Positions 3,636-33,071 of a DNA stretch of 64,000 bases are shown here, one piece after another. Made by a program: the position numbers and the translations under genes. The first letter of the stretch is position 1; every line of letters starts with the position of its first letter. Below the pieces are notes generated by a model. That model ran no database searches and was not told where the DNA came from. It saw nothing but the letters and a program-made list of their open reading frames with translations. The stretch comes from an uncultured Collinsella sp. (GTDB taxonomy: Bacteria > Actinomycetota > Coriobacteriia > Coriobacteriales > Coriobacteriaceae): positions 40,150 through 104,149 of the forward strand of contig UQZM01000001.1 of assembly GCA_900545615.1 (NCBI GenBank), written 5' to 3'.

Positions 3636-3659
3636 TTTTGAGTCGTAATGGATTAGTAT

Positions 3660-3673: not shown

Positions 3674-3726
3674 TAGAGGATGACGAGCGTATTGTGCGCC
3701 CGCTCCGCAAACAAAGGGGTTGTTTG

Positions 3727-5154: not shown

Positions 5155-5204
5155 ATCTGTATGTGCTCCGATTGGTGAAATCGGTTGCAAAGGGGAGGGA
5201 CCAT

Positions 5205-6710: not shown

Positions 6711-6788
6711 CTCCGCTGCTTGAAAAATCATGAATGCAACCCGGTGCGGCGATGCCGTACCGGGACTTGAGTTGAGAGGAAAACCTCT

Positions 6789-8303
6789 ATGAATAACATC
6801 AGCTACGAGACGCTCGAGAAGATCGGCTACGAGGGCTACGTGCTGCCCAAGGACGCCCCCGAGAAGGTCCTACAGTTTGGCGAGGGCAATTTCCTGCGCG
6901 CCTTCGTCGATCGTTTCTTCGATATGGGCAACGAGGCCACCGGTTGGAACGGCAAGGTCGTCATGGTGCAGCCCATCAGCGGCGCCTTCGATTTCGCCGA
7001 TGGTATCAATGCCCAGGATGGCCTGTACACCGTACTGGTGCGCGGCAAGGAGAACGGTGACACGGTTGACGATTCCCGCGTGATCAGCGCCTGCAGCCGT
7101 TGCCTCAATCCGTATCGCGAGGCTGACTACCGTGCCATGATGGAGGTCGCCGTTTCCGACGACCTGGAGATTATCGTCTCCAACACCACCGAGGCCGGTA
7201 TCGCCTACGATCCGTCCTGCAAGGCCGACGACATGCCCCCCGCGAGCTTCCCTGCCAAGCTTGCCCAGGTGCTCCATGCCCGCTGGGCTGCCGGCAAGCA
7301 GGGCGTCATCGTGCTCGCCTGCGAGCTCATCGACCATAACGGCGAGGAGCTGCTGCGCATCATGAACCAGTACGTGAGCGACTGGGGCTGGGAGGACGAG
7401 TTTTCGCAGTGGATGGCCAACGACTGCACCGTCTGCACCACGCTCGTCGACACCATCGTTCCGGGTCGCATCCGCGATCCCAAGGAGGCCGCTGCCGTGG
7501 CCGAGCGCTTGGGCTATGAAGATCCGTTCTTGGCCGTGCGTGAGCCCTTCCAGATGTGGGGCATCCAGGGTGACGAATCGCTCAAGGAGCGTCTGCCCTT
7601 CGTGAAGGCCGGTCTGCCGGGTGTCTTTGTGACCCCCGACGTCACCCCGTACAAGAAGCGCAAGGTCCGCATCCTCAACGGCGCCCACACCGCCTTTGTC
7701 CCGGGTTCCTGGGTTGCCGGCTTTGATATCGTGCGCGATTGCATGCACGACGAGACCGTCCGCGGCTTCATGAACACTATGCTCTACGACGAGGTCATTC
7801 CGACGCTTGCCGCCGACCTGGATGTCGAGGACTGCAAGGCCTTTGCCGCCGCTGTTGAGAACCGCTTCGACAACCCGTTTATCGACCACGCGCTGCTCTC
7901 CATCTGCCTCAACTCCACGGCTAAGTGGCGTGCCCGCGACCTGCCTACGCTCAAGGACTACGCTGCCGAGACCGGCAACCTGCCCAAGTGCCTGGCGACG
8001 AGCCTGGCCACGCTCATCTCCTTCTACACGCAGGAGCTCGTGTCCCGCGAGGGCGACGGCCTGCACCTGCGTCGCTCCGACGGCACCGAGTTCACCGCTC
8101 AGGACGACGCCTTTGTGCTCGACTTCTACGCTGCTCACGCCGGCGCCGACGACGCCGAGCTGGTGCACGATGTGCTCTCCAACGAGCAAATGTGGGGCGA
8201 GGATCTTACGCAGATCGCCGGCCTGGAGGAGTTTGTCGTCAACGCTCTCGCCGTCGTGCGCTCCGAGGGCGTCAAGCAGGCGTTCGCGAACGCTCAGGCC
8301 TAA
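6789..8303 (+). CDS. uxaB: Altronate oxidoreductase (tagaturonate reductase), mannitol dehydrogenase family
   Basis: 504 aa, mannitol-DH family N- and C-terminal domains. Sits next to uxaA. Confidence 0.75.
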   Translation: MNNISYETLEKIGYEGYVLPKDAPEKVLQFGEGNFLRAFVDRFFDMGNEATGWNGKVVMVQPISGAFDFADGINAQDGLYTVLVRGKENGDTVDDSRVISACSRCLNPYREADYRAMMEVAVSDDLEIIVSNTTEAGIAYDPSCKADDMPPASFPAKLAQVLHARWAAGKQGVIVLACELIDHNGEELLRIMNQYVSDWGWEDEFSQWMANDCTVCTTLVDTIVPGRIRDPKEAAAVAERLGYEDPFLAVREPFQMWGIQGDESLKERLPFVKAGLPGVFVTPDVTPYKKRKVRILNGAHTAFVPGSWVAGFDIVRDCMHDETVRGFMNTMLYDEVIPTLAADLDVEDCKAFAAAVENRFDNPFIDHALLSICLNSTAKWRARDLPTLKDYAAETGNLPKCLATSLATLISFYTQELVSREGDGLHLRRSDGTEFTAQDDAFVLDFYAAHAGADDAELVHDVLSNEQMWGEDLTQIAGLEEFVVNALAVVRSEGVKQAFANAQA

Positions 8304-8381
8304 ATCCTTCTGTACGCCCGCCGGGTAACTGGCGGGCGTCACTCGACTTCTGCTCAACCTGTAGGGTTAGGACTCTTTGTA

Positions 8382-9866
8382 ATGAACACTATCCAGATCA
8401 ATCCGGCCGACAACGTCATCGTTGCGCTGTCGCCGCTCGCCAAGGGTGCTGCCGTCGAGGTTCCCGGCGTGGGCGAGGTCGTTGCCGCGGAGGATATCCC
8501 GCAGGGTCACAAGATGGCCGTGCGCGCCATTGCAGCCGGTGAGGATGTCATCAAGTACGGTCTTCCCATCGGCCACGTGACGAAGGACATTCAGCCCGGC
8601 CAGTGGCTGCACACGCACAACGTGAAGACCAACCTCTCGGGTGAGATCGAGTACGCCTACAATCCGACACATCCGGTCGTTGAGCCGGTCGAGGCCGAGA
8701 CCTTTATGGGCTTCCGCCGTGCCGACGGTCGTGCCGCCACGCGCAATGAGCTTTGGATCATTCCCACCGTCGGTTGCGTCAACGAAGTCGCTCGTGCCAT
8801 GTGCGAGCAGACTCAGGACCTGGTCGAGGGCTCGTTGGAGGGCGTCTATTACTTCCCGCATCCGTTCGGTTGCTCACAGACCGGCGCCGACCATGCCCAG
8901 ACCCGTCGTCTGTTGGTGGCGCTGTCGCGTCACGCAAACGCCGCGGGCGTGCTGTTCTTGTCGCTCGGTTGCGAGAACTGCACGCATCAGCAGGTGCTCG
9001 ACGAGCTCGGTGACTTCGATCACGAGCGCGTTCGTTTTCTCACCTGCCAGGATGTAGCCGACGAGCAGATCGAGGGCCACAAGATTCTGTCCGAGCTGGC
9101 TGACCTGGCCAAGCAGGCCAAGCGTGAGCCCATTCCGGCCTCAGAGCTGGTTATTGGTCTTAAGTGCGGCGGCTCTGACGGTCTTTCGGGCATTACCGCC
9201 AACCCCACGATCGGTCGCGTGAGCGATATGGTCGTCGCCCGTGGCGGCACGTCGGTGCTCACCGAAGTGCCCGAGATGTTTGGCGCGGAGAGCATCCTGC
9301 TCGATCGCTGCGAGAACGAGCAGGTCTTTAACGCTGCCTCTGACATGCTTAACGGTTTTAAGGATTACTTTATTAGCCATGGTGAGGTGGTCTACGAGAA
9401 CCCGAGTCCCGGTAACAAGGACGGTGGCATCACCACGCTCGAGGACAAGAGTTGCGGCTGCGTGCAAAAGGGCGGCTCCGCACCCATCGTCGACGTGCTG
9501 CCGTATGCCGGTCAGGTCACCAAGCATGGCCTGAACATGCTGTGCGGCCCGGGCAACGACATGGTATCCACCACGGCGTTGACGGCTGCTGGCTGTCACG
9601 TGATTCTGTTCTCGACTGGACGCGGCACGCCGTTTGGTGCACCGGCGCCCACCCTCAAGGTGTTCACCAATCAGCGTCTGTGCGACCACAAGGCCAACTG
9701 GATGGACTTTAACGCCGGCGTGATTGCCACAGGCGAACGCACACTCGACGAGGCTGCCCGCGACCTGTATCAGCTGGTACTGGATACAGCGAGCGGTAAG
9801 CTAACGAGTGCCGAGCGCCGCGGTTGCCACGAGATCAGTATCTGGAAAGACGGCGTCTGCCTGTAG
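8382..9866 (+). CDS. uxaA: Altronate dehydratase
   Basis: 494 aa. SAF domain N-terminus plus the D-galactarate/altronate dehydratase large domain with a conserved Cys-rich region. Confidence 0.85.
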   Translation: MNTIQINPADNVIVALSPLAKGAAVEVPGVGEVVAAEDIPQGHKMAVRAIAAGEDVIKYGLPIGHVTKDIQPGQWLHTHNVKTNLSGEIEYAYNPTHPVVEPVEAETFMGFRRADGRAATRNELWIIPTVGCVNEVARAMCEQTQDLVEGSLEGVYYFPHPFGCSQTGADHAQTRRLLVALSRHANAAGVLFLSLGCENCTHQQVLDELGDFDHERVRFLTCQDVADEQIEGHKILSELADLAKQAKREPIPASELVIGLKCGGSDGLSGITANPTIGRVSDMVVARGGTSVLTEVPEMFGAESILLDRCENEQVFNAASDMLNGFKDYFISHGEVVYENPSPGNKDGGITTLEDKSCGCVQKGGSAPIVDVLPYAGQVTKHGLNMLCGPGNDMVSTTALTAAGCHVILFSTGRGTPFGAPAPTLKVFTNQRLCDHKANWMDFNAGVIATGERTLDEAARDLYQLVLDTASGKLTSAERRGCHEISIWKDGVCL

Positions 9867-9868
9867 AG

Positions 9869-9903
9869 AGATTCGCCATTCGTAGGGGTGGCGAATCTTT
9901 TGA
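9869..9903 (+). terminator. Rho-independent terminator after uxaA
   Basis: agattcgcca...tggcgaatct stem followed by tttgatct. Confidence 0.55.
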
Positions 9904-10073
9904 TCTCGATGACGGGGCTGCACAGTGGCTCCGTGCGAGGGAAGGGTTGCTACTGCGCGTTTGTGAGATGCCTTTCGGTGCCCTTTTCCGCACTGTTGAC
10001 GTATCTATGGTTATAAATTCGGGCAAATTGGTTTAAGAAGCCGATTTCGTCCAGGTCGATAGAGGGGAATTGC

Positions 10074-11291
10074 GTGGCTATCCACATCGTTGAGGAAGCA
10101 AATCGCTGTCTGGGCTGCAAAAAGGCGTTCTGTCAAATAAAGGGCTGTCCGGTGCAGACGCCCATTCCGCAGGTTATCGACCTCTTTAAGCAGCGCCGTC
10201 TGCAAGAGGCGGGCGAGCTGCTGTTCCAGAATAACCCGATGAGTGCGGTCTGCTCCATGGTGTGCAACCATTCGGGCCAGTGCGAGGGCGCGTGCATCCA
10301 GGGCCGAAAGGGCGCGCCCGTGCATTTTTCGAGCATCGAGAACTATATCTCTACGGCGTATTTGGACCGCAAAGAGTGGAAACCCGTGCCGTCGTGCGGC
10401 AAACAGGTCGCCGTGGTCGGCTCCGGCCCTGCCGGCATGACCGTGGCCATTAAGATGGCGCAGCTGGGTTGCGCCGTCACTGTTTTTGAGCAGCGGCCCG
10501 AGATCGGCGGCGTGCTGGAGTACGGTATCCCCGAGTTCCGTCTGCCGCGCTCGCTCGTGCAAAAGTACCGCCACGTGATGTGCTCGCTCGGCGTGCGCGT
10601 TCGCCCCTCGACCACCATCGGCGGTGCGCTCCACATCGACGACTTGCTGCGCGACGGCTACGATGCGGTCTTTGTTGGTACCGGCACCTGGCGAGCTCGA
10701 AAGCTGGGTATTCCCGGCGAGTCGCGCGGCAATGTGCTGTTTGGTATCGACTATCTGGTCGATCCCACGAGCGTGGCAATCGGGCAGAACGTGGCGGTTA
10801 TCGGCGCCGGCAATGTGGCCATGGATGTTGCCCGCACGGCCCTGCGCTCGGGTGCTCGCAAGGTTACCGTGTACGCCCGATCGCGCCATATCTCTGCCAT
10901 CGATGACGAGGTGGAGCTGACCGAGCTTGACGGTGCCGAGATTGTGTGCGGCAAGGCGATCTGCGCCATCGACGACAACGGTCCGGTGTTCGAGACGGCT
11001 ATCTTTGACGAGGACAACAACGTGGTGGGCTACGAGGAAGAACTCGATCACGTGTCCGCCGACACGGTTGTGATTGCGGCGTCTCAAGTGCCCAAGGACA
11101 AGCTCGTGCTTACAACGGGCGGTCTGGAGACCGACCATCGCGGCCTGCTTTCGGTCGACGAGTATGGCATGACTACCGTGCCTGGCGTCTTTGCCGCCGG
11201 CGACGTGGTCAACGGCCCGCTCACCGTGGTTCATGCCGTAGCTGGTGCCAAACTCGCCGTCGAAGGTATGATTGCCTACCTGGGCCTCTAA
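10074..11291 (+). CDS. GltD/PreT-like NAD(P)H-dependent FAD oxidoreductase (glutamate synthase small-subunit family) with N-terminal Fe-S cysteines
   Basis: GTG start with RBS agagggga. CLGCKKAFC...C Cys motifs and two GxGxxG dinucleotide folds (VVGSGPAG, VIGAGNVA). Confidence 0.7.
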   Translation: MAIHIVEEANRCLGCKKAFCQIKGCPVQTPIPQVIDLFKQRRLQEAGELLFQNNPMSAVCSMVCNHSGQCEGACIQGRKGAPVHFSSIENYISTAYLDRKEWKPVPSCGKQVAVVGSGPAGMTVAIKMAQLGCAVTVFEQRPEIGGVLEYGIPEFRLPRSLVQKYRHVMCSLGVRVRPSTTIGGALHIDDLLRDGYDAVFVGTGTWRARKLGIPGESRGNVLFGIDYLVDPTSVAIGQNVAVIGAGNVAMDVARTALRSGARKVTVYARSRHISAIDDEVELTELDGAEIVCGKAICAIDDNGPVFETAIFDEDNNVVGYEEELDHVSADTVVIAASQVPKDKLVLTTGGLETDHRGLLSVDEYGMTTVPGVFAAGDVVNGPLTVVHAVAGAKLAVEGMIAYLGL

Positions 11292-11380
11292 CTCCATCCC
11301 GCCCATCAGTTGCGGTGAAATACGGACTGTTTTGGCTGTCAAAGGCCTCATCTACTCCGTATTCCACCGCAACTTTTTAT
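11289..11380. repeat. Palindromic repeat element, AGTTGCGGTGAAATA family, long 90-bp form (copy a)
   Basis: About 92% identical to 19696-19790. Terminal inverted repeat AGTTGCGGTGAAATACGGA / TCCGTATTCCACCGCAACT followed by a T-run. Lies between convergent genes. Confidence 0.7.
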
Positions 11381-11388
11381 GGGGTGGG

Positions 11389-12093
11389 CTAGAGACGCTG
11401 CATGCGGTACCCGACACCCATGTGCGTCTGAATCATCTTGGGGTGAGAGGGGTCTGCCTCGATCTTCTTGCGCAGGGTGCGCATGAACACGCGCAGGCTC
11501 GCCAGATCGCTGTCCCAGCTCGTGCCCCATATCTCGCGGGTGATGAAGGTGTGGGTAAGCACCTTGTCGACGTTTTTCGCTAGAAGGACGAGCAATTTGT
11601 ACTCGGTTGGGGTGAGCGAGAGCTCGCGTCCGTCTTTCGTCGCGTATCCCGCGGCGTAGTCGATATGCAACGGACCGTTGTCGAACGTGCTCGCTTCTGT
11701 CGACTCGCTCGACGCCATCGAGGAGCGCCTCAAATTCGCACGTACGCGCGCGAGCAACTCATCCACAGAAAAGGGCTTGGTGAGGTAGTCGTCTGCCCCT
11801 GCGTCAAGTGCTGCAATCTTGTCGGAATCTTCGGTGCGCGCCGAAATGACGATAATGGGGACTGCCGACCAGCTTCGGATCTTCGTGATGACCTCGATAC
11901 CGTCAATGTCGGGAAGGCCGAGGTCGAGCATGATGAGGCTGGGGCCGTGCGACACCGCATCCATGATGGCGGCCTGGCCGTTGCAAACCTTGCTCACGAC
12001 ATAGCCGTGGAGGTCAAGCGCGGTCGAAACGAGGTTTTGAACGGTCGGGTCATCTTCGACCAGGAGGATGCGTGGCTTAGCGGCATTATTCAT
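11389..12093 (-). CDS. kdpE: KdpE, OmpR-family response regulator
   Basis: MNNAAKPRILLVEDD receiver plus winged-helix. Overlaps the kdpD stop by 8 nt. Confidence 0.85.
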   Translation of the reverse strand: MNNAAKPRILLVEDDPTVQNLVSTALDLHGYVVSKVCNGQAAIMDAVSHGPSLIMLDLGLPDIDGIEVITKIRSWSAVPIIVISARTEDSDKIAALDAGADDYLTKPFSVDELLARVRANLRRSSMASSESTEASTFDNGPLHIDYAAGYATKDGRELSLTPTEYKLLVLLAKNVDKVLTHTFITREIWGTSWDSDLASLRVFMRTLRKKIEADPSHPKMIQTHMGVGYRMQRL

Positions 12094-14821
12094 GAATCTC
12101 GATCTCCTCGGCGGGCAGGGTAAAACGGAAGACGGCCCCACGGGGGTGGTTGTCGCGAACTTCGATGACACCGCCATGCGCCTCCACGATGGAACGGCAG
12201 AGTGACAGCCCAAGGCCGATGCTTCGACGCGAATCCACGGGCCGCGTATTGCTTGAGGTGAAGAAGCGCTCAAAGATATGAGGCTTGTCGCAGTCTGCCA
12301 CACCCGGCCCATCGTCTGCGACGTCCACCACGACGAACGCACCCTCGCGACGTGCGCTGATGGTGACAGTCGAGTCCTCGGGCGTGTATTTGAAAGCGTT
12401 CATGATGAGATTCGTAAGCACCTGCATGATGAGATGGACGTCGATGCGTACCAGCAGGATGTCGTCAGTGTGGTCGATGGTGACGGTACGTCCATGCGAT
12501 GCTTGGGCGACATGGCTGAGGGCGGCCTCGATGACCTCGTCGATGAGCTCGGATGTTAAGTTGAGGCGAATGGTGCCGTCCTTGACGCGTGTGATGGCGA
12601 GGAGGTTCTCCACGGTATCGATAAGCCAGAGGGAGTCGTCGTAGATGGCATCGGCAAGATCGCAGCGTTGTTCGAGGCTGAGCTTCTCGTCACTCTTCCG
12701 AAGGATTGCCGCAGATCCGGATATAGCCGTGAGGGGTGTCCTCAAATCGTGGCCGATGGAGCGCAAAAGGTTGGCGCGCAGCTGCTCGTTTTTCGCCAAG
12801 ACCGCAGCCTCTTCGCGCTCTTGCGCCGCCCGATCGCTTTCGAGCGCCAAGGCGCATTCACCTACGATAGATAGGACGATCGAATGCTCGAAGGCTTCGA
12901 TCTCGCGCCCCTCCAGGGCGATACCGATGACACCGAATACCTTGTCGCCGGTGCGAACCGCGAGGTAGAGACAGCGCGCCTCAGGCAGGGTCCGCGTGCT
13001 TGCGCCCGCGCGCTTGTTGTTGGTGTAGGTCCAGGTTGCAACGGCGCGCTCGTAGTCGGTGAGCAGCGACGCGGATCGGTTTTCGGTGCCAGCGGACTCA
13101 TAGAGCGCCTTGCCGAGCGTGCCGTGTTCGGCGGGGTAGAAGACCACGTCGAGTTTTAGCAGTTTGACGAGTTGGTTCATGGCGACGCGGGCGCACTCCT
13201 CCGCGCTATGGGCTTGCTGCAAGAGCTGGTTCGTTTCGAGGAGTACGCGCGTTTTGAATGCGTTCTCGGCGGATGTACGGGCGTTGTCGGCGATGCGCGC
13301 AGTTAACTCGCCGGCGACCATAGCGGTAGCGAACATGATGCCGAACGTGACCAGATAGCTTCGGTCGTAGCTGGCGAGCGAAAACAGAGGTGTGACGAAG
13401 CAGAAGTTGTAAAGCACTACAGAGAGCACGCTCGATACGATCGTGCAGATACGCCCCGTCGTGGTGACGGCGGTCAGCAGGGCCGTGAGGATATAGAGGG
13501 ATATGATGCTGGAATCGGCAAATCCCAGATGGCGGAAAGCCGTGCCGATCGCCGTGGCGGCAAGAGAGAGGGCCAGCGTGCGAAGCACGTTTCGGCTGCT
13601 GGGCGGCTGCGGGGCGAGCGCATGGCGGCGTCCTTTGGGTCGGGAGGGCGGAGTCGACTGTTCTGGAATGATGTAAATGTCGAGGTTCGGGGCGAATGTT
13701 ATGAGCTGTTCTACGAGAGATTTGCGGCCGAAGAGGGCCTGACGGACGCTGCTGCGCTCACCCGTGCGCCCCATGACGATCTTCGAAATACCCGACAGGC
13801 GCGCGAACTCGGAAATCTGAAACGCGATGTCGTCGCCATAGACGGTTTCCATATGTGCTCCGAGCTGCTCGGCTAGGGCGATATTGGCTGCAAGCTTGGC
13901 GCGCTCATCATCGCTCATGGCTTGCGTGCGCGGGCTCTCTACGAACAGGGCGACGAGCTCGCTGCGAAACGCTTTCGCCATGCGTGCGGCGGCACGGACG
14001 ATGCGGGGATTGGTCGGCGCCGGGGAGACGCAGACTAAGATACGCTCCCTGGTGTAGTAGTCACGGTTTCCCAGCACGCGTGCGGCGTCTGTGAGGTGGC
14101 CGGTGCGATCGGCGCAGCGGCGCAGCGCGATTTCTCGGAGTGCGGTGAGGTTCTCGACGGTAAAAAAATGCTGTTGCGCTCGGTCGGCTTGTGCGGGACG
14201 GTAGACGAGGCCGGCGCGAAGGCGCTCAAGTAGGTCTTCGGGCTCTATGTCGACGAGCTCGACTTGGTCGGCATCATCGAAGATACGGTCGGGGATTCGT
14301 TCGCTCACGACAACGCCGGTGATGGATGCAACCATGTCGTTTAGGCTCTCGATATGCTGAACGTTCACGGTCGTATAGACGTCGATGCCCGCATGTAGAA
14401 GTTCCTCGACGTCTTGATAGCGTTTGTCGTGGCGAGACCCCGGCGCATTCGTATGGGCGAGCTCGTCGACAAGGATGAGCTGAGGGGCGCGTTCGATAGC
14501 CGCATCTAGATCGAACTCGCTGAGCGCAATGCCGTTGTGCTCGATGAGTTTACAGAGCACGTTCTCAAGCCCTTGTGCAAGATGGGCAGTTGCCGGACGT
14601 TCGTGCGGCTCGATGTATCCCGCGACGACGTCGACACCTCGCCGCTTGGCGGCGTGGGCGGCTTGAAGCATTGCATAGGTTTTGCCTGTGCCAGCAGCGT
14701 AGCCAAAGAAAATCTTGAGGTGTCCCCGGCTGGTTCGAGCGTCATCGGCGACCTCGTCTTTCTCAATTGCCTTGAGGATGAGGTCTGGATTGACGCGAGT
14801 GTCCGATGCGTCGCGCTGCAT
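12086..14821 (-). CDS. kdpD: KdpD sensor histidine kinase (KdpD N-domain, Usp, TM, HisKA, HATPase)
   Basis: FFGYAAGTGKTYAML KdpD N-terminal P-loop and a C-terminal HATPase. Start set at the Met aligning with KdpD N-termini; the track's upstream TTG extension is unlikely. Confidence 0.8.
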   Translation of the reverse strand: MQRDASDTRVNPDLILKAIEKDEVADDARTSRGHLKIFFGYAAGTGKTYAMLQAAHAAKRRGVDVVAGYIEPHERPATAHLAQGLENVLCKLIEHNGIALSEFDLDAAIERAPQLILVDELAHTNAPGSRHDKRYQDVEELLHAGIDVYTTVNVQHIESLNDMVASITGVVVSERIPDRIFDDADQVELVDIEPEDLLERLRAGLVYRPAQADRAQQHFFTVENLTALREIALRRCADRTGHLTDAARVLGNRDYYTRERILVCVSPAPTNPRIVRAAARMAKAFRSELVALFVESPRTQAMSDDERAKLAANIALAEQLGAHMETVYGDDIAFQISEFARLSGISKIVMGRTGERSSVRQALFGRKSLVEQLITFAPNLDIYIIPEQSTPPSRPKGRRHALAPQPPSSRNVLRTLALSLAATAIGTAFRHLGFADSSIISLYILTALLTAVTTTGRICTIVSSVLSVVLYNFCFVTPLFSLASYDRSYLVTFGIMFATAMVAGELTARIADNARTSAENAFKTRVLLETNQLLQQAHSAEECARVAMNQLVKLLKLDVVFYPAEHGTLGKALYESAGTENRSASLLTDYERAVATWTYTNNKRAGASTRTLPEARCLYLAVRTGDKVFGVIGIALEGREIEAFEHSIVLSIVGECALALESDRAAQEREEAAVLAKNEQLRANLLRSIGHDLRTPLTAISGSAAILRKSDEKLSLEQRCDLADAIYDDSLWLIDTVENLLAITRVKDGTIRLNLTSELIDEVIEAALSHVAQASHGRTVTIDHTDDILLVRIDVHLIMQVLTNLIMNAFKYTPEDSTVTISARREGAFVVVDVADDGPGVADCDKPHIFERFFTSSNTRPVDSRRSIGLGLSLCRSIVEAHGGVIEVRDNHPRGAVFRFTLPAEEIEIHE

Positions 14822-15065
14822 AGCGTAGCCTTTCTGAAGCGTTGTCCATGCGTGCATATGCGGCGAGGACGCCACTGTATGCTCGCGAGGTCGAGTATAG
14901 GCGCACTGCAGCCGCAATAGTGCTTTCTACCTGCATCTTTACGGCATCTTAAGGTCGTGAGCCCCAGCCCTCACGCCTCTTTAATCCCTAGAAGCGTTTA
15001 CTGTCCCCAGACGCTTGCGAGAGCAGGCGTCCGAGACATCGGGCCGCGCGTGAAAGGGGCGGTAA

Positions 15066-15152
15066 ATGAACATCCTCATTCCCATCATCGGAGTCGTCTG
15101 CATTGGACTCCTTATCTATTACATCTACATTCTGATGAGGAGTGATTCGTAA
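15066..15152 (+). CDS. kdpF: KdpF, small hydrophobic subunit of the Kdp ATPase (28 aa; absent from ORF track)
   Basis: ATG at 15066. Encodes MNILIPIIGVVCIGLLIYYIYILMRSDS. The stop lies 3 nt before the kdpA ATG. RBS gaaagggg. Confidence 0.65.
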   Translation: MNILIPIIGVVCIGLLIYYIYILMRSDS

Positions 15153-15155
15153 ACT

Positions 15156-16979
15156 ATGGACGCTGCGATTCAGTACATCGTGTACTTTGCCGTGCTCGTC
15201 GTCCTGGCCGTTCCGCTCGGTCGGTTCATGGCCCATATCATGGATGGTGAGCATACGTTCCTGTCGCCTGTGATTGCTCCTGTGGAGCGCGGCGTCTATC
15301 GTCTGCTTCGCATCGACGCGGCAGAGCAGATGGGGTGTAGGCGCTATCTGGCGAGCGTGCTGGTCTTTTCGGGGATCGGCCTCGTGGCTCTTGTGGCACT
15401 CCAGGCGCTTCAGTCCTTCTTGCCAGGCAATCCCCAGCACCTGCCGGGTGTGTCATTGGACCTGTCGTTCAACACGGCTGCTTCCTTCATAACCAACACC
15501 AACTGGCAATCCTATTCCGGTGAGACCACCCTGTCCTACCTTGTGCAGTTCATGGGCCTCACCGTGCAGAACTTCGTTTCCGCTGGCACCGGTATCGCGG
15601 TCATGTTCGCGCTGATCCGCGGCTTCCGTCAGGTCAAGGAGCAGGGTCTAGGTTCCTTCTGGGTCGACCTCACCCGCACCGTCCTGTATGTGCTCATCCC
15701 GCTGAACCTCGTGTTCGGCATCTGCCTGGCTGCCGGTGGCGTCATCTCCAACTTCCAGCCGGCTCAGAAGGCTGAGCTCGTAGAGCCCGTCGCTGTTCAG
15801 CCTAATGCAGACGGCGGCTGGAGCGTCATCGACGGCGCCCAGATCGAGGGCGACGCGGTCAAGGTCGACGGCAAGGTTGTCGAGGGCGCGCGCGTGGTCA
15901 CCGAGCAGTTCCTGCCCCAGGGTCCCGCGGCTCCCCAGGTCGCCATCAAGCAGTCCGGCACCAACGGAGGCGGCTTCTTCGGCGTGAACTCCGCCCATCC
16001 GTATGAGAACCCCAGTGCCTTCACCAACATCATCGAGATGACCAGCCTGCTGCTGATCCCGGCCGCCTGTTGCTTCACCTTCGGTATCGGCGTCAAGAAC
16101 ACCAAGCAGGGCAAGGCCATCTTTGCCGCCATGTTCATCCTGCTGGTGATCTTCACCGGCATCATCGCCGTCAACGAGCATGCGGGCACCCCGCAGCTGG
16201 CCGATGGCGGAGCGGTCAATATCGAGATGACCGACGGCCAGGCCGGCGGCAACATGGAGGGCAAGGAGAGCCGCTTTGGCATCGCCTCCTCTTCCACCTG
16301 GTCCGCTTTCACGACGGCTGCTTCCAACGGCTCGGTTAACTCCATGCACGACTCCTACACCCCGCTGGGCGGTTTTGTCCAGATGCTCCAGATTGCTCTG
16401 GGCGAGGTCGTCTTCGGCGGCGTGGGCTGCGGCCTGTACGGCATGATCGGCTTCGCCATCCTCACAGTGTTCATCGCCGGCCTCATGGTCGGACGCACGC
16501 CTGAGTTCCTGGGCAAGAAGATCGAGCCGGGCGAGATGCGCTGGGCGGTTGTCCTGTGCTTGGCAACTCCGTTTGCCATTCTGGTGTGCTCGGCCATCGC
16601 CTGCATGGTGCCCGGTCTTGCCGACCAGCTCAACAACGGTGGCGCGCACGGCTTCTCCGAGGTGCTGTATGCCTTCACCTCATGCGGCGGCAACAACGGC
16701 TCGGCGTTTGCAGGCATGAACTGCAACATTCCCTGGATCAACGTCATGCTCGGCCTCGAGACGCTGTTCGCCCGCTTCATGCCCATCATCGGTACGCTGG
16801 CTATCGCCGGCTCGCTGGCCAAGAAGGGTAAGGTCGCCGAGAGCGCCGGTACCCTGTCTACCACCAACGGCATGTTCGTATTCCTGCTCGTGTTCATCGT
16901 TCTGCTGATCGGTGCCCTGAGCTTCTTCCCGGCCCTGGCGCTTGGCCCCGTTGCCGAGTTCTTCCAGATGATTGCGTAA
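15156..16979 (+). CDS. kdpA: Potassium-transporting ATPase subunit A
   Basis: 607 aa, polytopic, with the KdpA N-terminus [11 protein letters not shown]. Confidence 0.9.
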
Positions 16980-16995
16980 AGGAGGGCGCAGATTT

Positions 16996-19050
16996 ATGAC
17001 TATGCAAAAAGACATGATGGGCCGCGCGGTCCGCGACTCGTTTGCCAAGCTGGATCCTCGCGTCCAGATTCAAAACCCGGTCATGTTCCTGGTGTGGCTT
17101 TCCGCCGTCATGACCTCCGTCCTGGCCGTCGCTTCCATTTTCGGTGTGCAGGACGCGGGTGTGCCCACCTACTATGTGGTCGCCATCGCGGTCATTCTGT
17201 GGCTCACCGACCTGTTCTCGAACTTCGCCGAGGCGCTTGCCGAGGGCCGCGGTAAGGCCCAGGCCGATTCCCTGCGTGCGGCCAAGAAGGATGTCGAGGC
17301 CCATCGCATCGAGTCCGTTGAGGACAAGGAGCACTTCACCGTCGTTCCCGGCACCGAGCTCACGCGCGGCGACCTGGTGATCGTACGCGCCGGCGAGCAG
17401 ATTCCCGGCGACGGCGACGTCATCGAGGGTGCTGCTTCCGTTGACGAGTCCGCCATCACCGGCGAGTCCGCCCCCGTAGTCCGCGAGGCCGGCGGCGACC
17501 GCTCTGCCGTTACCGGCGGTACCACGGTGCTGTCCGACTGGATCATCGTCAAGATTTCCAGTGAGCCCGGCCAGAGCTTCCTGGACAAGATGATCGCGAT
17601 GGTCGAGGGTGCCGCGCGCAAGAAGACCCCTAATGAGATCGCTCTGGAGATCTTCCTGGTGGCCCTCTCCATCGTCTTTATCCTGGTCACGCTGGCCCTG
17701 TATTGTTACTCCTGCTTCTCGGTCGGTCTTAACGACATGGTCAACCCCACGGCCGTGACCACGCTCGTGGCGCTGCTCGTGTGCCTGGCTCCCACTACCA
17801 TCGGCGCCCTTCTGTCCGCCATCGGCATCGCCGGCATGAGCCGTCTGAACGAGGCCAACGTGCTGGCCATGTCCGGCCGCGCCATCGAGGCCGCCGGCGA
17901 CGTCGACATCCTCATGCTCGACAAGACCGGCACCATCACCCTGGGTAACCGCCAAGCCGCCGAGTTCATCCCGGTCGACGGCATCGATCCCGCGGAGCTG
18001 GCCGATGCCGCCCAGCTTTCCTCGCTGGCCGACGAGACCCCCGAAGGCCGTTCCATCGTCGTGCTCGCCAAGGAGCAGTTCGGTCTGCGCGGCCGCACAC
18101 TCGAGGATAAGGGTATGGAGTTCATCCCCTTCACCGCGGCGACCCGCATGTCCGGTGTGAACTACGAGGGCAATGAGATCCGCAAGGGCGCTGCCGATTC
18201 CGTGCGCACCTATGTGGAGGCAGCCGGCGGCGTGTTCTCCCAGGAGTGCGACGAGGCCGTCGAGCGCATCGCCAAGGCCGGCGGCACCCCGCTGGTCGTG
18301 ACCAAGAACTGCCGCGTGCTGGGCGTTGTGTACCTCAAGGACATCATCAAGTCCGGCGTTAAGGAGAAGTTCGCCGACCTGCGCAAGATGGGCATCAAGA
18401 CCATCATGGTGACGGGCGACAACCCGCTCACCGCCGCGGCAATCGCCGCCGAGGCCGGCGTTGACGACTTCCTGGCCGAGGCCACCCCTGAAGGCAAGCT
18501 CGAGAAGATCCGCGAGTTCCAGCGTGAGGGGCACCTGGTCGCCATGACCGGCGACGGCACCAACGACGCGCCCGCTCTGGCCCAGGCCGACGTCGCCGTG
18601 GCCATGAACACGGGCACCCAGGCTGCCAAGGAGGCCGGCAACATGGTCGACCTCGACTCCAGCCCCACCAAGCTCATCGAGGTCGTGCGTATCGGCAAGC
18701 AGCTGCTCATGACCCGCGGTTCGCTCACGACCTTCTCGGTGGCCAACGACATGGCGAAGTACTTCGCTATCATCCCGGCCCTGTTCTCGCCGATCTACCC
18801 CGGGTTGGACGCCCTCAACATCCTCGGTCTGGCAAGCCCGCTGTCCGCGGTTCTTTCGGCCATCATCTATAACGCGCTCGTTATCGTCGCGCTGATCCCG
18901 GCCGCGCTGAAGGGCGTTAAGTACCGCGAGGTCCCGTCCGGACAGCTGCTGACCCACAACCTGCTCGTGTGGGGTCTGGGCGGCATCGTTGCCCCGTTCG
19001 TATTCATCAAGCTCATCGACATGCTGCTCGCGTTCTGCGGCATTATGTAA
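16996..19050 (+). CDS. kdpB: Potassium-transporting P-type ATPase subunit B
   Basis: DKTGTIT phosphorylation motif and TGDN/GDGTND motifs. RBS aaggaggg. Confidence 0.9.
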
Positions 19051-19062
19051 GTGGAGGTTTGT

Positions 19063-19653
19063 ATGTTCAAAGGTGTTGCATCGCGCGCACTGGGCGTGTT
19101 CGCGCTGTTTACCGTTGTCTGCGGCCTGGGCTATACGCTCGTCGTGACCGGCATCGCCCAGGTTGCGTTCCCGTATCAGGCGAACGGTTCGCTCATCAAG
19201 GTCGACGACAAGATTGTGGGCTCCGAGCTGATCGGCCAGAACTTCGAGGATGAGGACCACATGTGGGGCCGCATCCAGAACGTGACTATCGTCGAGGGGG
19301 AGGACGGCGGGCTCATGGCCTACGGCACCCCGTCCAATTTGTCCCCGGCGAGTGAGGAGTACCGGCAGCTTGTGGACGCGCGCGTCGAGAAGATTCGCGC
19401 CTTCAACCCCGATGCCGGCATGGATGCCGTGCCCGTCGACCTGGTGACGTGTTCCGGCTCAGGGCTCGACCCCGATATCTCTCCCGATGCCGCCGAGTAC
19501 CAGGTACCGCGCCTGGCGAAGGCCACGGGCAAGAGCGAAGGCGAGGTGCGCGAGATCATCGCCCAGTGCACCAAGGGCCGATTCCTGGGCGTGTTCGGCG
19601 AGCCCACGGTCAACGTGCTCAAGGTGAACCTTATGCTGGACGGCGCGCTGTAG
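19063..19653 (+). CDS. kdpC: Potassium-transporting ATPase subunit C
   Basis: About 197 aa, single N-terminal TM. RBS ggagg. Confidence 0.85.
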   Translation: MFKGVASRALGVFALFTVVCGLGYTLVVTGIAQVAFPYQANGSLIKVDDKIVGSELIGQNFEDEDHMWGRIQNVTIVEGEDGGLMAYGTPSNLSPASEEYRQLVDARVEKIRAFNPDAGMDAVPVDLVTCSGSGLDPDISPDAAEYQVPRLAKATGKSEGEVREIIAQCTKGRFLGVFGEPTVNVLKVNLMLDGAL

Positions 19654-19695
19654 GTGAGGGAGTGGCGGATGAGGGCATGACTGACTATCTGAGCC

Positions 19696-19790
19696 CTCAA
19701 TTCCACTCCGCCCATCAGTTGCGGTGGAATACGGACTGTTTTGCCTGTCAAAAGCCTCATCTACTCCGTATTCCACCGCAACTTTTTTGT
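19696..19790. repeat. Palindromic repeat element, AGTTGCGGTGGAATA family, long form (copy b)
   Basis: Near-identical to 11289-11380 in the same orientation. Together the two copies bracket the kdp locus. Confidence 0.7.
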
Positions 19791-19901
19791 GAGGGTCGGG
19801 ATTGAAGGTGGGGAGTGCGAGCGAGTGCGAATGCAGCGGATACTGATACGATAGGTACGTTAGCAACTGCCGCCGAGCGGCTCAAACGAAAGGAACCCTG
19901 T

Positions 19902-21851
19902 ATGGAGTCATCCGCCTACCCGATGCTCTTTAGCCCGATCAAGGTCGGTACGACCGAGGTCAAGAACCGCGTCTTTATGCCGCCGGTGTCCACGAACCTG
20001 GCCGATCATGGCTATGTGACCGACGATTTGGTCGATCATTACCGTGCCCGCGCCAAGGGCGGCGTGGGCCTGATCATCACCGAGGTCGTGACGGTCGAGC
20101 CCACCTATACCTATCTGCCGGGTGACATGTGCTGCTACGACGATACGTTTATCCCCGGCTGGGAAAAGCTCGCCGCGGCCGTCCACGAGTACGGCTGCAA
20201 GATCATGCCGCAGCTCTTCCACCCCGCTTACATGGCCTTTAACATTCCGGGCACGCCGCGCCTGATCGCTCCGTCTTTTGTGGGCCCGTCCTATGCCCGC
20301 GAGGCACCGCGCCCCATCACGGTCGACGAGATTCACGAGCTCACGCATCAGTTTGGCGACGCTGCCGTTCGTATGCAGAAGGCTGGCGTCGATGGCGTTG
20401 AAGTCCATGCGGCACACGCCCACGGCATGCTCGGCGGCTTTTTGACTCCGCTCTACAACAAGCGTACCGACGAGTATGGTGGCTCGCTCGACGCCCGTAT
20501 GCGCTTTTTGCTCGAGGTCATCGCCGAGATTCGTGAGCGCTGCGGCAAGGACTTCATCATCGACGTTCGTATCTCGGGCGATGAGTACACCGATGGCGGC
20601 CTGACCCTCAACGACATGATCTATGTCTCGCGTCGCTTGGAGAAGGCCGGCGTCGACATGATTCACGTGTCGGGCGGTACCACCATCAAGCGCGGCTCCG
20701 CAATTCCCGCCGCCGGTACCCAGCAGGCCTCGCATGCCGCCTGCTCGCGCGAGATCAAAAAGCACGTCAACATTCCCGTCGCCACCGTCGGTCGCATTAA
20801 CGAGGCCTGGATCGCCGAGGAGCTGATCGAGGACGGCGCTGCCGACATCTGCATGATGGGCCGCGCCAATCTGTGCGATGCCGAGTTCTGCAATAAGGCC
20901 GCTGCCGGCAACGCCGACGATATCCGCCCCTGCATTGGCTGCCTGCGCTGCCTGAACGGCATTATGTTTGGCAAGCGTATCTCCTGCACCGTCAACCCCG
21001 ATGTTGAGCGCGACGAGGCCGGTTACGAGCCTGCCGCCGAGGCCAAGAACGTACTGGTTGTGGGCGCTGGTCCTGCGGGCATGGAGGCGGCGTTCATTGC
21101 CGCCAAGCGCGGCCACAACGTGGTGCTCGTGGACAAGCAGGACGAACCGGGCGGCGAGATGCGCATCGCGGCCGTTCCGCCGGCAAAGCAGGAGCTCACC
21201 CGCGTGATCAAGTATCAGTATCGTCGCCTGGCCGAGGCCGGCGTGAAGTGCGTATTTGGCACCGAGCTTACTGCCGAGGACATTCAGCGCGACTACGCCG
21301 GGTATGAGGTTGTCCTGGCCTATGGCGCCGAGCCTATCGCTCCGGCCTTTATGCGGGGCTTTAAGCAGGTCATGACGGCTGACGACCTGCTGGGCGGCAA
21401 TGCCTTCCCGGGCAAGAAGATCGTCATCGTGGGCGGCGGCACCGTCGGCTGCGAGACGGCCGACTATCTGGCTCCGCTGGTCAACGACCTGTCGCCGGCA
21501 AACCGCGACGTCACCGTCATCGAGATGACCAAGACGCTCGCCGCCAACGAAGGTGGCGCCGGTCGCGCGGTGCTCATCACGCGCATGCTCTCCAAGGGCG
21601 TCCACGTGCTGACCGAGGCCAAGGTGACCGAGATTACCGAGGATGCCATCAGCTATGAGAAGGATGGCGAGATCCACACCATCGCCGATGCCGATACGCT
21701 GGTGCTTGCCATGGGTTATCGTCCCAATACCAAGCTGGCCGACGACCTTGCCGCTGCCGGCGTTGCCACCCACGTGCTGGGCGATGCCAACAAGTGCGGC
21801 AACATCCGCGATGCCATCGGCGATGGCTACAAGGTTGCCTGCGAACTCTAG
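19902..21851 (+). CDS. NADH:flavin oxidoreductase of the OYE/2-enoate-reductase/2,4-dienoyl-CoA-reductase type (FMN TIM barrel, 4Fe-4S, C-terminal FAD/NAD(P) domain)
   Basis: The N-terminal barrel is OYE-like. It has a CIGCLRC Cys cluster and GAGPAG plus GGGTVG dinucleotide folds. RBS aaaggaa precedes the ATG at 19902. Confidence 0.8.
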   Translation: MESSAYPMLFSPIKVGTTEVKNRVFMPPVSTNLADHGYVTDDLVDHYRARAKGGVGLIITEVVTVEPTYTYLPGDMCCYDDTFIPGWEKLAAAVHEYGCKIMPQLFHPAYMAFNIPGTPRLIAPSFVGPSYAREAPRPITVDEIHELTHQFGDAAVRMQKAGVDGVEVHAAHAHGMLGGFLTPLYNKRTDEYGGSLDARMRFLLEVIAEIRERCGKDFIIDVRISGDEYTDGGLTLNDMIYVSRRLEKAGVDMIHVSGGTTIKRGSAIPAAGTQQASHAACSREIKKHVNIPVATVGRINEAWIAEELIEDGAADICMMGRANLCDAEFCNKAAAGNADDIRPCIGCLRCLNGIMFGKRISCTVNPDVERDEAGYEPAAEAKNVLVVGAGPAGMEAAFIAAKRGHNVVLVDKQDEPGGEMRIAAVPPAKQELTRVIKYQYRRLAEAGVKCVFGTELTAEDIQRDYAGYEVVLAYGAEPIAPAFMRGFKQVMTADDLLGGNAFPGKKIVIVGGGTVGCETADYLAPLVNDLSPANRDVTVIEMTKTLAANEGGAGRAVLITRMLSKGVHVLTEAKVTEITEDAISYEKDGEIHTIADADTLVLAMGYRPNTKLADDLAAAGVATHVLGDANKCGNIRDAIGDGYKVACEL

Positions 21852-21999: not shown

Positions 22000-22641
22000 T
22001 TAGAGACCCAGGAGCTCCTTGACCTTGGCGATGATTGCCTCGTCGGTGGCGTTGGCGAAGAAGTACTCCTGGAAGTGCTCGCCAGCCAGGGCACCCTTGA
22101 CCAGGTCCTGGTCGATCTCGCCCAGGACGTCGACGAGCGGACGCATGGTCACAGCGCGGACGCCGTCGAGGATCTTCTTGTTGCGCTGCTCGGGCTCAAC
22201 GCGCTCGGCAGGATAGCCGTTGCCCGAGCCGAAGCCGAAGAGCTTCTCGAAGGTGTACTCGAGGTTGAGCTCCTGGCCCCAGCCGTTCTTGAGGGCGAAG
22301 GGCATGGCGACGGCGTTACCATCGTTGACCTGGGCAAAGGTGTAGGCATCCAGCGGGTCGGCGACATGGCCGCACAGAACACCGGGGAAGGAGTTGCAGG
22401 CGAGCATGGCGCCCTCGCCGGTGCCGCAGCCGGTCACGACATAGTCGGCAGCGCCTGAGTTGAGCAGCACGGCGGCGAGGATGCCGTTCTGAACGTAGGT
22501 GAGCGGCTTGGAGTCGGCATCGGCATACATACCGTAGTTAAAGACGGTGTGGCCCATGGGCTCGACAACCTTCTTAAGGGCAGCCTCGATCATGGGGTTC
22601 TTGGAGTTCTGAGAGTTCTCGTTGATGAGAGCGATCTTCAT
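22000..22641 (-). CDS. RpiB/LacA/LacB-family sugar isomerase, DhuI-like 4-deoxy-L-threo-5-hexosulose-uronate ketol-isomerase candidate
   Basis: 213 aa RpiB fold with a C-terminal extension. Sits in an operon with a KduD/DhuD-like SDR. Assignment is by family resemblance. Confidence 0.6.
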   Translation of the reverse strand: MKIALINENSQNSKNPMIEAALKKVVEPMGHTVFNYGMYADADSKPLTYVQNGILAAVLLNSGAADYVVTGCGTGEGAMLACNSFPGVLCGHVADPLDAYTFAQVNDGNAVAMPFALKNGWGQELNLEYTFEKLFGFGSGNGYPAERVEPEQRNKKILDGVRAVTMRPLVDVLGEIDQDLVKGALAGEHFQEYFFANATDEAIIAKVKELLGL

Positions 22642-22664
22642 AGCGAAGTACCTTTCCTATTTCT

Positions 22665-22733
22665 AACTTGCGGTGAAATAGTTCCTATTCGTCCCGATGA
22701 TGGCCTATTCAGGAACTATTTCACCGCAACTAC
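22665..22733. repeat. Palindromic repeat, AGTTGCGGTGAAATA family (copy c)
   Basis: Perfect 19-bp arms ttgcggtgaaatagttcct / aggaactatttcaccgcaa. Starts 20 bp upstream of the isomerase start codon. Confidence 0.7.
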
Positions 22734-22872
22734 TAAATGAACCTAAATGTGGGAGCGCGGTGAGCGAGCGGGCTTGAGACGGAGCAGGTTGCCTTGAAAG
22801 AGGAGGGAAGCGTACTTGGGTACGCGACCGACGATTGAAAGGCAAGATGCCCGTCTCAAGCCCGCGCAGCGC

Positions 22873-23682: not shown

Positions 23683-23786
23683 AGCGATCCTTTCAAAAGA
23701 AACGTTCATCTATATAAGTCTTGCTTTTAATACAAGCTCAGTATAGGAGAAGAGGAGGAATTGACGCCCCTATTCTCCTAAAAATA

Positions 23787-23800
23787 GGTGAACGTTCACT
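23787..23800. promoter_or_regulatory. Operator GGTGAACGTTCACt (one mismatch) in the SDR gene promoter
   Basis: Same palindrome as at uxaC. A half-site, aggtgaacgg, follows 8 bp downstream. Confidence 0.5.
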
Positions 23801-23840
23801 TTTAAAAGGTGAACGGTTGAAATCGGTTGTCGCGATGCCC

Positions 23841-24533: not shown

Positions 24534-24766
24534 AGTTATACCTCTCATCGCAAAATTCATCTGAGCTATTTTAGCGCATCACAGATGCGATACTGGCGGT
24601 TCGTCCCAATCGAGCGGCTTATATATACCGTTCGCAGCGTAAATTCGCCCGTTCGCCAAATACATCAGATGTATTTCGAACAAATTTCAAAATGAAACAT
24701 CAGACCTTTTCAAAACACGCTATAGTCATCAGACGAATTTAAAAGGTCTGATGAATTGGAGGAAAG

Positions 24767-26128: not shown

Positions 26129-26306
26129 TCGCAAGCCAGCGCTTTGCATCAGCACGTCACATTAATCGATACCAAACCAAGTAAGCCTTAAACCAAAGGA
26201 GTACACCATAGACGAGAAGACCAAAGAGCAGATTCAGCAGGAGGCCGCCGAGCTGGTTGCCAAGCTGCAGCCGCGTTCTGGTAAGTTCCGCACCATCAGC
26301 CCCGAG

Positions 26307-31824: not shown

Positions 31825-31847
31825 TAATCGCAACAACTCGTTGGCTG

Positions 31848-31916
31848 TAGTTGCGGTGGAATAGTTCCTGTTTTTGCTGCTGAAGGCCTTGAACAGGAAC
31901 TATTCCACCGCAACTT
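31848..31916. repeat. Palindromic repeat, AGTTGCGGTGGAATA family (copy d)
   Basis: 24-bp perfect arms agttgcggtggaatagttcctgtt / aacaggaactattccaccgcaact. Confidence 0.7.
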
Positions 31917-31987
31917 ATGAGGGGGCGGGGGATGCGATAGTATTGCATGGTGGTATTCGATTAACCGAGGCTTCATCCGAGGGCTTT

Positions 31988-32680: not shown

Positions 32681-32693
32681 CTCGTCCCCTTCA

Positions 32694-32761
32694 TTAGTTG
32701 CGGTGAAATAGGGATTGTTTGGGGCTCTGATGGTGTAAACAGTCCGTATTTCACCGCAAGT
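32694..32761. repeat. Palindromic repeat, AGTTGCGGTGAAATA family (copy e)
   Basis: Arms agttgcggtgaaatagggattgttt / aaacagtccgtatttcaccgcaagt. Located after the GntR stop. Confidence 0.65.
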
Positions 32762-33071
32762 GCGAGACGCTACCGGGGCACAAAAAAGCTGCGGCGCCGC
32801 TTGGAGGAAAAGACCGGAAACAAGGGTCCATTCCTCCAGACGGCGCCGCAGCTGTTTTGATGGCTCGGTTTTTGTCGATGTGGCTCAACTGGGCGCGGTT
32901 GCCAGCCGAGTAGGCAAAGCGGCTCGGGGGCGTGTCGCTTCCGTCACGTTCTATCAGCATACAAGACGGTTTTGGTTCTTGTTCGTGACGGAAACGGCGC
33001 GCTTCCGAGCCGCTTTAAAAGAAAGAGGGCGAGGTCTAGGGCACGCCCCCTTTCACGATAGAGAGCTAAAC

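Follow-up and report, generated by a model that had tools for sequence, protein, structure and literature searches.

Staphylococcal cassette chromosome mec (SCCmec) type II of Staphylococcus aureus carries a second kdpDE-kdpFABC copy on a recombinase-driven element, and integrons carry an array of attC sites next to intI, with core sites of the consensus RYYYAAC...GTTRRRY. Palindromes of the repetitive extragenic palindrome (REP) type are described as known insertion targets and rearrangement end points (Tobes & Pareja 2006, PMC1525189; Darmon & Leach 2014, PMC3957733; via PMC7771070). Here we describe a kdpDE-kdpFABC locus that lies between two palindromic direct repeats in DNA of an uncultured Collinsella sp. 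(assembly GCA_900545615.1, contig UQZM01000001.1, positions 40,150 to 104,149 of the forward strand; this whole stretch of 64,000 nucleotides is referred to here as the window). As in S. aureus SCCmec, the sensor-plus-pump module of Collinsella is strain-variable, although it lacks mobile-element machinery. We consider it fairly probable that kdp entered this site by an ancient insertion at the 3' edge of a palindrome, with a target duplication of approximately 142 bp, and that its presence and absence now segregate via homologous recombination. The locus is a well-resolved instance of an already known kind of event, and it provides a sequence-resolved case of a complete sensor-plus-transporter module becoming strain-variable in an abundant human gut actinobacterium.

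By domain content, the kdp genes form an ordinary KdpFABC/KdpDE system: KdpA, KdpB, and KdpC are encoded together, and a KdpD with an N-terminal KdpD domain and an OmpR-type KdpE are present (Pfam; feature coordinates are collected in Table 1). The block is 8.27 kb long (window 11386-19653), with the order kdpE-kdpD / kdpF-kdpA-kdpB-kdpC. Assignment of the 28-residue open reading frame (ORF) upstream of kdpA as kdpF is plausible, with position and hydrophobicity as its sole basis. The initial annotation of this DNA had placed kdp inside the repeats and a GltD-like oxidoreductase gene, an old yellow enzyme (OYE)/FAD flavoreductase gene, and sugar-acid genes outside them, and the Pfam assignments agree with this layout. 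Neither the ORF listing nor Pfam revealed a non-kdp gene between the repeats; the 8.27 kb are filled by kdp genes.

We found that relatives carry this site both with and without kdp. The empty site consists of the GltD-like gene, one palindrome, and the flavoreductase gene, with approximately 117 nt between the genes and no kdp. Nine loci are of this kind: C. aerofaciens ATCC 25986 (L077), two species-representative genomes (L066 and L044), and six metagenome contigs (L127, L131-L134, and L137). The check proposed with the initial annotation, whether the GltD-like gene directly adjoins the flavoreductase gene where kdp is absent, came out in its favor in all nine, each with one repeat. Thirteen loci are occupied, counting the window and L225; both repeat copies are present in the window, L121-L126, L128-L130, and L135, and L225 represents a rearranged occupied site. 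In L225 (GCA_020537185.1, 2236-2324 vs window 2323-11304), one deletion removed LacI, uxaC, MFS, uxaB, uxaA, and the GltD-like gene; its right end lies 3 nt before the left kdp palindrome, and what is left is the FeoB/66-aa gene, the palindrome, and kdp. An identical GltD-like protein is encoded on 24 metagenome or genome contigs, 22 of which carry kdp and two of which are empty, and the GltD gene of the empty L127 is 100% identical to that of the window at the nucleotide level. Neighbor-joining trees of GltD and of the flavoreductase gene interleave kdp-bearing and kdp-free loci; the kdp-bearing L135, whose GltD is 88% identical to that of the window, groups with the empty L066 and L044. There are three right-flank haplotypes, two of which occur both with and without kdp. 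High-affinity K+ uptake is a variable trait in the C. aerofaciens complex, with the type strain lacking kdp at this site, and this variability is relevant to comparing strains for gut fitness.

The near-identical, same-orientation repeats that the initial annotation had reported at 11289-11380 and 19696-19790 are direct repeats with 89.5% identity (85/95) over those coordinates, and their sequences read as it had quoted them. Its estimate of approximately 90 bp for their extent was too short, as the similarity continues for approximately 142 bp and includes a relic of the GltD-like gene. A repeat search returns one direct pair of 117 nt, 11262-11378 and 19671-19787, at 87% identity and with a spacing of 8409 nt. 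The two 68-nt palindrome cores match at 65/68 positions (95.6%), while the full duplicated stretch (11241-11384 vs 19650-19794) matches at 118/145 (81%), and the longest perfect tract common to both repeats is 34 nt. Since a 21-nt repeat arm occurs six times in the window vs not once in 100 shuffles of it, this similarity is not due to chance. The two copies form stems of 19-21 bp that contain an internal loop (folding energies of -39.9 and -38.9 kcal/mol; z = -6.0 and -6.7). The left hairpin begins 17 nt past a stop codon and is followed by a T5 run; the right hairpin begins 64 nt past a stop codon and is followed by a T6 run.

The similarity between the repeats also takes in the final 48 nt before the GltD-like stop codon. 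Here, 11241-11288 and 19650-19697 share 29 of 48 ungapped positions, compared with a background mean of 12.4 (sd 3.1) and a maximum of 26 over 63,714 window positions; the GltD-like allele of ATCC 25986 matches the relic at 30 of 48. The relic immediately follows the stop of kdpC and separates that gene from the right palindrome. It is conserved in all kdp-bearing loci and nearly invariant among them, yet it has diverged from GltD by approximately 35-40%. Upstream of the stop codon, other copies of the palindrome family share nothing with the GltD 3' end. Because the similarity enters unique GltD sequence, the kdp-flanking pair represents a local duplication, not two independent family members.

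The palindromes themselves belong to a larger family, and this opens a different reading of the pair, in which kdp was resident first, the repeats are two separately acquired family members that were later homogenized by gene conversion and flank kdp incidentally, and the empty sites are deletions between them. The family is dense enough for this, since the gapped outer-stem pattern finds five copies in the window (at 11.3, 19.7, 22.7, 31.8, and 32.7 kb), all within its first 33 kb. Neighboring copies can also resemble each other closely. A gene of approximately 1.1 kb lies between two direct-orientation family palindromes in L100, L056, L049, L028, and L065; the pair is 100% identical in L100 (4726-4789 / 5913-5976) but differs in its inner stems in L056, pointing to gene conversion among neighboring family copies. 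In addition, the interior of the element (inner stem and loop) is exchanged between CGGACT and GTTCCT types at orthologous sites, while the 14-bp outer stem and the flanks stay; instances are L225 10644-10732 vs window 19706-19794, where the GltD relic is retained, and window 22655-22742 (at 22668) vs L134 3836-3901. We nevertheless regard independent acquisition as doubtful, since the similarity covers 48 nt of unique GltD coding sequence that the other copies lack, the loops of the two kdp-flanking copies are closer to each other than to those of any other copy collected, and the kdp block lies elsewhere in another lineage.

Both junctions of the block could be mapped. L135, which carries kdp, and L066, which is empty, have the same left flank and are identical through '...CCGCAACTTTTTTGTGAGG', after which L135 runs into the kdpE stop codon and L066 into the flavoreductase leader. 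This divergence places the start of kdp-specific sequence at 11385/11386, at a distance of 4 nt from the kdpE stop; the kdpC stop at 19653 is its other end. The homology of the window to L211, which carries kdp at another locus, runs from 11386 to 19654, from the kdpE stop codon to the kdpC stop codon, and thus has the same left and right limits (11386 and 19654). The left part of the duplicated target consists of the last 48 nt of the GltD-like gene (11241-11288) and its stop codon, and the other end of the duplication is the outer G-run of the element, 11 nt past the core.

The history that we favor would run as follows. The 8.27-kb kdp block would have entered the short spacer between the GltD-like and flavoreductase genes in the Collinsella aerofaciens group. 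This spacer would have held one resident terminator-like palindrome, and the block would have been placed exactly at its 3' edge. The target would have been duplicated over approximately 142 bp (the last 48 nt of the GltD-like gene, the stop codon, the palindrome, and the outer G-run), such that the gene-proximal copy would keep GltD intact and the copy after kdpC would have decayed outside the palindrome. This arrangement may have come from one Campbell-type crossover, in which the chromosome recombined with a circular or looped molecule that had kdp adjoining a homologous GltD-end/palindrome stretch; we favor this route because it is the most economical one to so long a duplication. Alternatively, the duplication may stem from the repair of a staggered break close to a fragile palindrome. 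Alleles with and without kdp would then pass between lineages by homologous recombination in the flanking DNA. Empty alleles may have two sources, allelic replacement and deletion between the direct repeats, and a precise RecA-type deletion of the latter kind would restore the one-copy empty site. L127 illustrates allelic replacement: it is 98-100% identical to the window upstream of the palindrome and 91% identical over 2.4 kb downstream of it (the flavoreductase gene and the following spacer).

As in Campbell-type integration, the insert is flanked by a target duplication reaching into the 3' end of the neighboring gene, and relatives show a precise one-copy empty site. Unlike in such integration, the kdp locus contains no integrase or replicon genes, its repeats are short (approximately 142 bp) and old, and the circular intermediate is hypothetical. 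Several further points weigh against the proposed insertion. Recombinase, transposase, and plasmid genes are absent within or beside the kdp block. No circular form is demonstrated, and the kdp-only contigs of the Logan collection are most simply explained by assembly that breaks at the repeats. Neither L127 nor L066 is a simple left-by-right recombinant of any sampled kdp-bearing haplotype, as their right flanks are of another type. Gain and loss cannot be told apart from the empty sites, since an ancestral empty site looks like a repeat-mediated deletion. Gene conversion between neighboring family copies, as seen in L100 vs L056, could add to the similarity of the left and right repeats. Finally, about two thirds of the family copies have no T run, and it is from position only that a terminator role is read. 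The Logan contigs (L214, L215, L231, and L232; 8388-8439 nt) were considered as a circular kdp molecule and rejected. Such contigs recur in short-read assemblies and start and end inside the repeats; L231 and L232 are clearly bounded by them. The ends of L214 overlap by 30 nt (k-1), yet its assembly graph is entangled by further family copies.

These results bear on two proposals of the initial annotation. The first was that recombination between repeat copies had acquired or relocated kdp. Loss by this route is plausible; gain by it is not shown, the repeats take in GltD sequence, and a second kdp locus is free of repeats. The second was that kdp split a pre-existing catabolic locus. The backbone is indeed split, yet a functional unit is not established. 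No flavoreductase homologue adjoins the GltD-like gene in approximately 70 more distant loci (35-53% identity), and the adjacency is therefore a feature of the Collinsella backbone rather than a widely conserved pair.

Direct repeats that include a gene 3' end, together with a precise empty site, are the classical signature of a recent genomic island that a site-specific integrase has placed into the 3' end of a gene, here that of the GltD-like gene, with the repeats as attL and attR. The kdp locus shares the direct repeats and the empty site with integrase islands and lacks their integrase gene and deviant composition. We consider such an island very unlikely, as no integrase or mobility gene is present in 8.27 kb of kdp genes, the composition is native, and the alleles are deeply diverged. 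The comparison of GC content and codon usage proposed with the initial annotation spoke against a recent acquisition: the kdp block has a GC content of 0.615 vs 0.586 for the host, its GC content at third codon positions (GC3; 0.72-0.87) is within the range of the neighbors, and its codon usage correlates with r = 0.95. The kdpB and kdpC genes fall into two allele classes that are approximately 85% identical, as far apart as the flanking core genes, and L135 and L123 carry the second kdpBC class, approximately 85% identical to both the window and L211. Identity profiles of the kdp-bearing loci are mosaics of 100% and 85% tracts. A search for KdpC homologues returned only relatives that are at least 94% identical. 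The event is old, since the relic is near-invariant in kdp-bearing lineages while it differs from GltD by approximately 35-40%, so that the duplication predates the diversification of the sampled lineages. Our data indicate that the kdp block is native in composition, old, and strain-variable, and not a recent foreign import.

The same block lies between a phosphofructokinase (PFK) gene and hypothetical/FtsX genes in L211 (GCA_027683425.1, labelled C. intestinalis), and this PFK|FtsX locus with kdp is also found in seven metagenome contigs (L212, L213, and L220-L224). The block has therefore changed place at least once. We found no family palindrome at the PFK|FtsX locus, sampled over approximately 20 kb in six orthologous loci (approximately 120 kb in total). 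Between L211 and the window, identity is 75-80% in kdpDE but 94-99% over kdpB, kdpC, and the 3' part of kdpA (window 15400-19653 vs L211 6350-10592). This pattern indicates that the pump genes were exchanged recently between lineages, by homologous replacement across different chromosomal locations.

We next turn to the palindromes. The initial annotation had tied the repeats to kdp; they do form a local pair there, yet their core belongs to a genus-wide, terminator-like family that has a further three members in the window. A covariance model trained on 65 family copies of other genomes finds the same five window copies at 59-75 bits and nothing else above 31 bits. In a collection of species-representative genomes, at least 120 stretches match the gapped outer-stem pattern GTTGCGGTGRAATA...TATTYCACCGCAA. 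Among the matches listed, all are from Collinsella or Coriobacteriaceae except for three labelled 'uncultured bacterium' and one contig labelled Alloprevotella sp. (L075, CAVGCW010000044.1), which carries a typical family palindrome and is probably mis-binned Collinsella. A collection of viral contigs contains the pattern in three stretches only, and a phage element was rejected as the identity of the palindrome on this ground. Rfam held no matching family, either at the gathering threshold on the whole window or at a permissive E-value on the left repeat, where the output was sub-threshold, miRNA-like hairpin noise. A simple terminator scan is blind to these hairpins, as their loops exceed 8 nt. 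Since Rfam gave no match and we found no account of Collinsella repeats (nor of kdp variability) in the literature, the family is apparently genus-specific and undescribed.

From 158 distinct copies we derived the consensus CCCCnnnATA-AGTTGCGGTGRAATA-(GGGACTG / GTTCCTG / CGGACTG...)-loop-(...)-TATTYCACCGCAACT-TATnnnGGGG, in which the element is approximately 89 nt long and the core 64 nt. The outer 14 bp of the stem are fixed by the search pattern and are uninformative on conservation. The next four stem pairs, which the pattern leaves unconstrained, switch between GC and CG, GC and TA, GC and TA, and AT and CG; they covary and are 96-99% paired, and as these switches define subfamilies they reflect descent as well as selection. 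The copies lie at the ends of genes: 96 of 140 follow a stop codon by no more than 45 nt, counting open frames of 100 codons or longer on either or both sides, compared with 17% of random positions, and the distance from stop to stem has its modal peak at 13-17 nt. A T run accompanies about one third of the copies, and its side agrees with the neighboring ORF in nearly every case. Only two of 33 long ORFs with high GC3 in the whole window end in TGA, vs 16 in TAA and 15 in TAG, so the TAA and TAG stops beside the element follow a genome-wide habit and are not specific to it. Such scarcity of TGA is unusual for a genome of 59-60% GC.

Both kdp-flanking palindromes most likely terminate transcription, the left one that of the GltD-like gene and the right one that of kdpFABC, as judged from position only. 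Such a role would explain why the palindromes remain at approximately 96% identity while the neighboring relic has fallen to approximately 65%. Like intrinsic terminators, the kdp-flanking copies are stable stem-loops after stop codons, followed by T5 or T6. The family differs from intrinsic terminators in its stem of 21-26 bp, the outer half of which is conserved in sequence across hundreds of sites, and in that most copies have no T run. Like REP elements, bacterial interspersed mosaic elements (BIME), and REPIN of Escherichia coli and Pseudomonas, the Collinsella element is a short, high-copy, intergenic, imperfect palindrome with conserved arms, located at gene 3' ends and at rearrangement end points. 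It differs from them in being longer (64-nt core, approximately 89 nt overall), confined to Collinsella in our scan, near-fixed, and not in Rfam.

The palindrome is old and largely fixed, and it is no actively jumping miniature inverted-repeat transposable element (MITE). Of the comparisons of orthologous sites across Collinsella lineages, 653 showed a filled site and approximately two were unclear exceptions, and among them we found no clean empty site or target-site duplication of the palindrome itself. The target-site duplication and insertion polymorphism that mark a MITE are thus not seen. L132 was rejected as an empty site of a palindrome because approximately 50 nt of unrelated sequence stand in its place, and L092/L112 because the match was spurious. 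The copies also differ from integron attC sites: they are dispersed beside core genes rather than arrayed, and their arms, AGTTGCGG...CCGCAACT, have GTT outermost on the 5' arm, which is the opposite arrangement.

The placement of hairpins in direct orientation at both ends of kdp, with the limits of the block coinciding with an element edge, raises the question of whether the palindromes are recognized by a recombination or transposition machinery of their own (REP/RAYT-like, IS200/IS605-like, or Xer-like), with kdp mobilized as a hairpin-bounded cassette. Two unrelated deletions, one at 31848|31849 vs L127 and the other in L225, stop within 0-3 nt of a family hairpin at its 5' foot and fit this reading, as do the swappable interiors within an invariant outer 14 bp (those fixed by the search pattern) and the occurrence of the block at two loci. 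We consider it quite unlikely, however, since hairpins are absent from the second locus, sequence outside the element is part of the asymmetric duplication, the ratio of filled to empty orthologous sites shows no visible transposition, no recombinase gene was seen near any copy examined, and the kdp alleles diverge in step with the host. There is a similarly small chance that a hairpin-specific recombination or nicking activity acts at the stem foot, inserting, deleting, and relocating gene blocks such as kdp and swapping interiors within the 14-bp outer stem; if so, the palindromes would be its recognition sites rather than passive terminators, and it would amount to a cassette-like system on core chromosomal loci. 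Several synteny break points fall at family copies (the kdp junctions, 31848|31849, the deletion of L225, and 22641-22680), which hints at enrichment; those away from hairpins include the 22074-29585 deletion, the uxa-cluster indel, and others, and all break points are intergenic. As candidates for a second hairpin-flanked accessory block, L100/L049 were rejected because all relatives carry both copies, and the translocated GntR gene of L133 because it has no hairpins. The palindromes lie 13-17 nt past stops, mark several rearrangement end points, break short-read assemblies, and swap interiors, and they are useful as markers and are candidates for terminators or recombination hot spots.

Table 1. 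Features of the kdp locus and further copies of the palindrome family, in window coordinates
Feature	Position	Strand	Basis or remark
GltD-like oxidoreductase gene	10074..11291	+	Pfam Fer4_20 + Pyr_redox_2
Left palindromic element	11297..11385	+	Core hairpin 11307-11374, T5 run, outer G-run; covariance-model match 69 bits
kdpE, response regulator	11389..12093	-	Pfam Response_reg + Trans_reg_C; 234-aa called gene in L121
kdpD, sensor kinase	12086..14857	-	Pfam KdpD, Usp, DUF4118, HisKA, HATPase_c; 923-aa called gene
Candidate kdpF, 28-aa hydrophobic peptide MNILIPIIGVVCIGLLIYYIYILMRSDS	15066..15152	+	ORF listing; directly upstream of kdpA
kdpA	15156..16979	+	Pfam KdpA, E = 6e-220
kdpB, P-type ATPase subunit	16996..19050	+	Pfam E1-E2_ATPase + Hydrolase; 684-aa called gene
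kdpC	19063..19653	+	Pfam KdpC, E = 2e-64; stop codon 19651-19653
Relic (decayed copy) of GltD-like 3' end plus spacer, non-coding	19654..19705	+	Fixed-register matching, alignment
Right palindromic element, upstream of flavoreductase gene	19706..19794	+	Core 19716-19783, T6; covariance-model match 68-70 bits
OYE/FAD flavoreductase gene, right-hand backbone neighbor	19902..21851	+	Pfam Oxidored_FMN + Pyr_redox_2; 649-aa called gene
Third family copy, GTTCCT-type inner stem, without T run	22655..22742		Just upstream of RpiB-like gene
Fourth family copy, 5' outer flank missing	31838..31926		2.1-kb indel vs L127 ends at its 5' base (31848|31849)
Fifth family copy	32685..32772		15 nt past stop codon of GntR/FCD gene

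The surroundings of kdp are a variable sugar-acid island. To the left of the block, Pfam identifies an MFS_2 sugar transporter, a mannitol-dehydrogenase-like protein (UxaB/UxuB type), and an altronate dehydratase next to the GltD-like gene. The uronate cluster (LacI, uxaC, MFS, uxaB, and uxaA) is itself an indel (window 2210-10059 vs L131 9617-9986): in L131, the GltD-like gene directly follows the FeoB/66-aa genes, and in L132 and L133 approximately 9 kb of other DNA separates uxaA from the GltD-like gene. To the right, the 7.5 kb at 22074-29585 (RpiB-like, short-chain dehydrogenase (SDR), GntR/FCD, GntP permease, IlvD/Edd dehydratase, and Schlafen-AlbA_2 genes) are deleted in L127 and in ATCC 25986. 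This deletion is not hairpin-bounded and leaves a 72-nt remnant of the RpiB-like 3' end. Conversely, 2.1 kb of L127 (15783-17876, with HIT and GntP-permease genes) are absent from the window, where the break is at 31848|31849, the exact 5' base of the fourth palindrome, whose C-rich outer flank is lost in the window.

Long hairpins seem to be the usual punctuation between the genes of this genome. Other families of long intergenic palindromes lie at 31673-31753 / 35038-35118, 53877-53948 / 55119-55190, and 59306-59338 / 60268-60300, and further ones at 32777-32864, 28154-28228, and 45901-45958. These are near-perfect (dG of -36 to -50 kcal/mol, z of -7 to -11) and unrelated in sequence to the kdp-flanking family. 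Finally, approximately 12 tandem copies of the 10-bp unit CAARATATAG occupy 30682-30801, between an AAA_16 gene (29594-30694, minus strand) and a DUF6198 gene (30819-31550, minus strand), and could represent an iteron-like or phase-variable promoter region.

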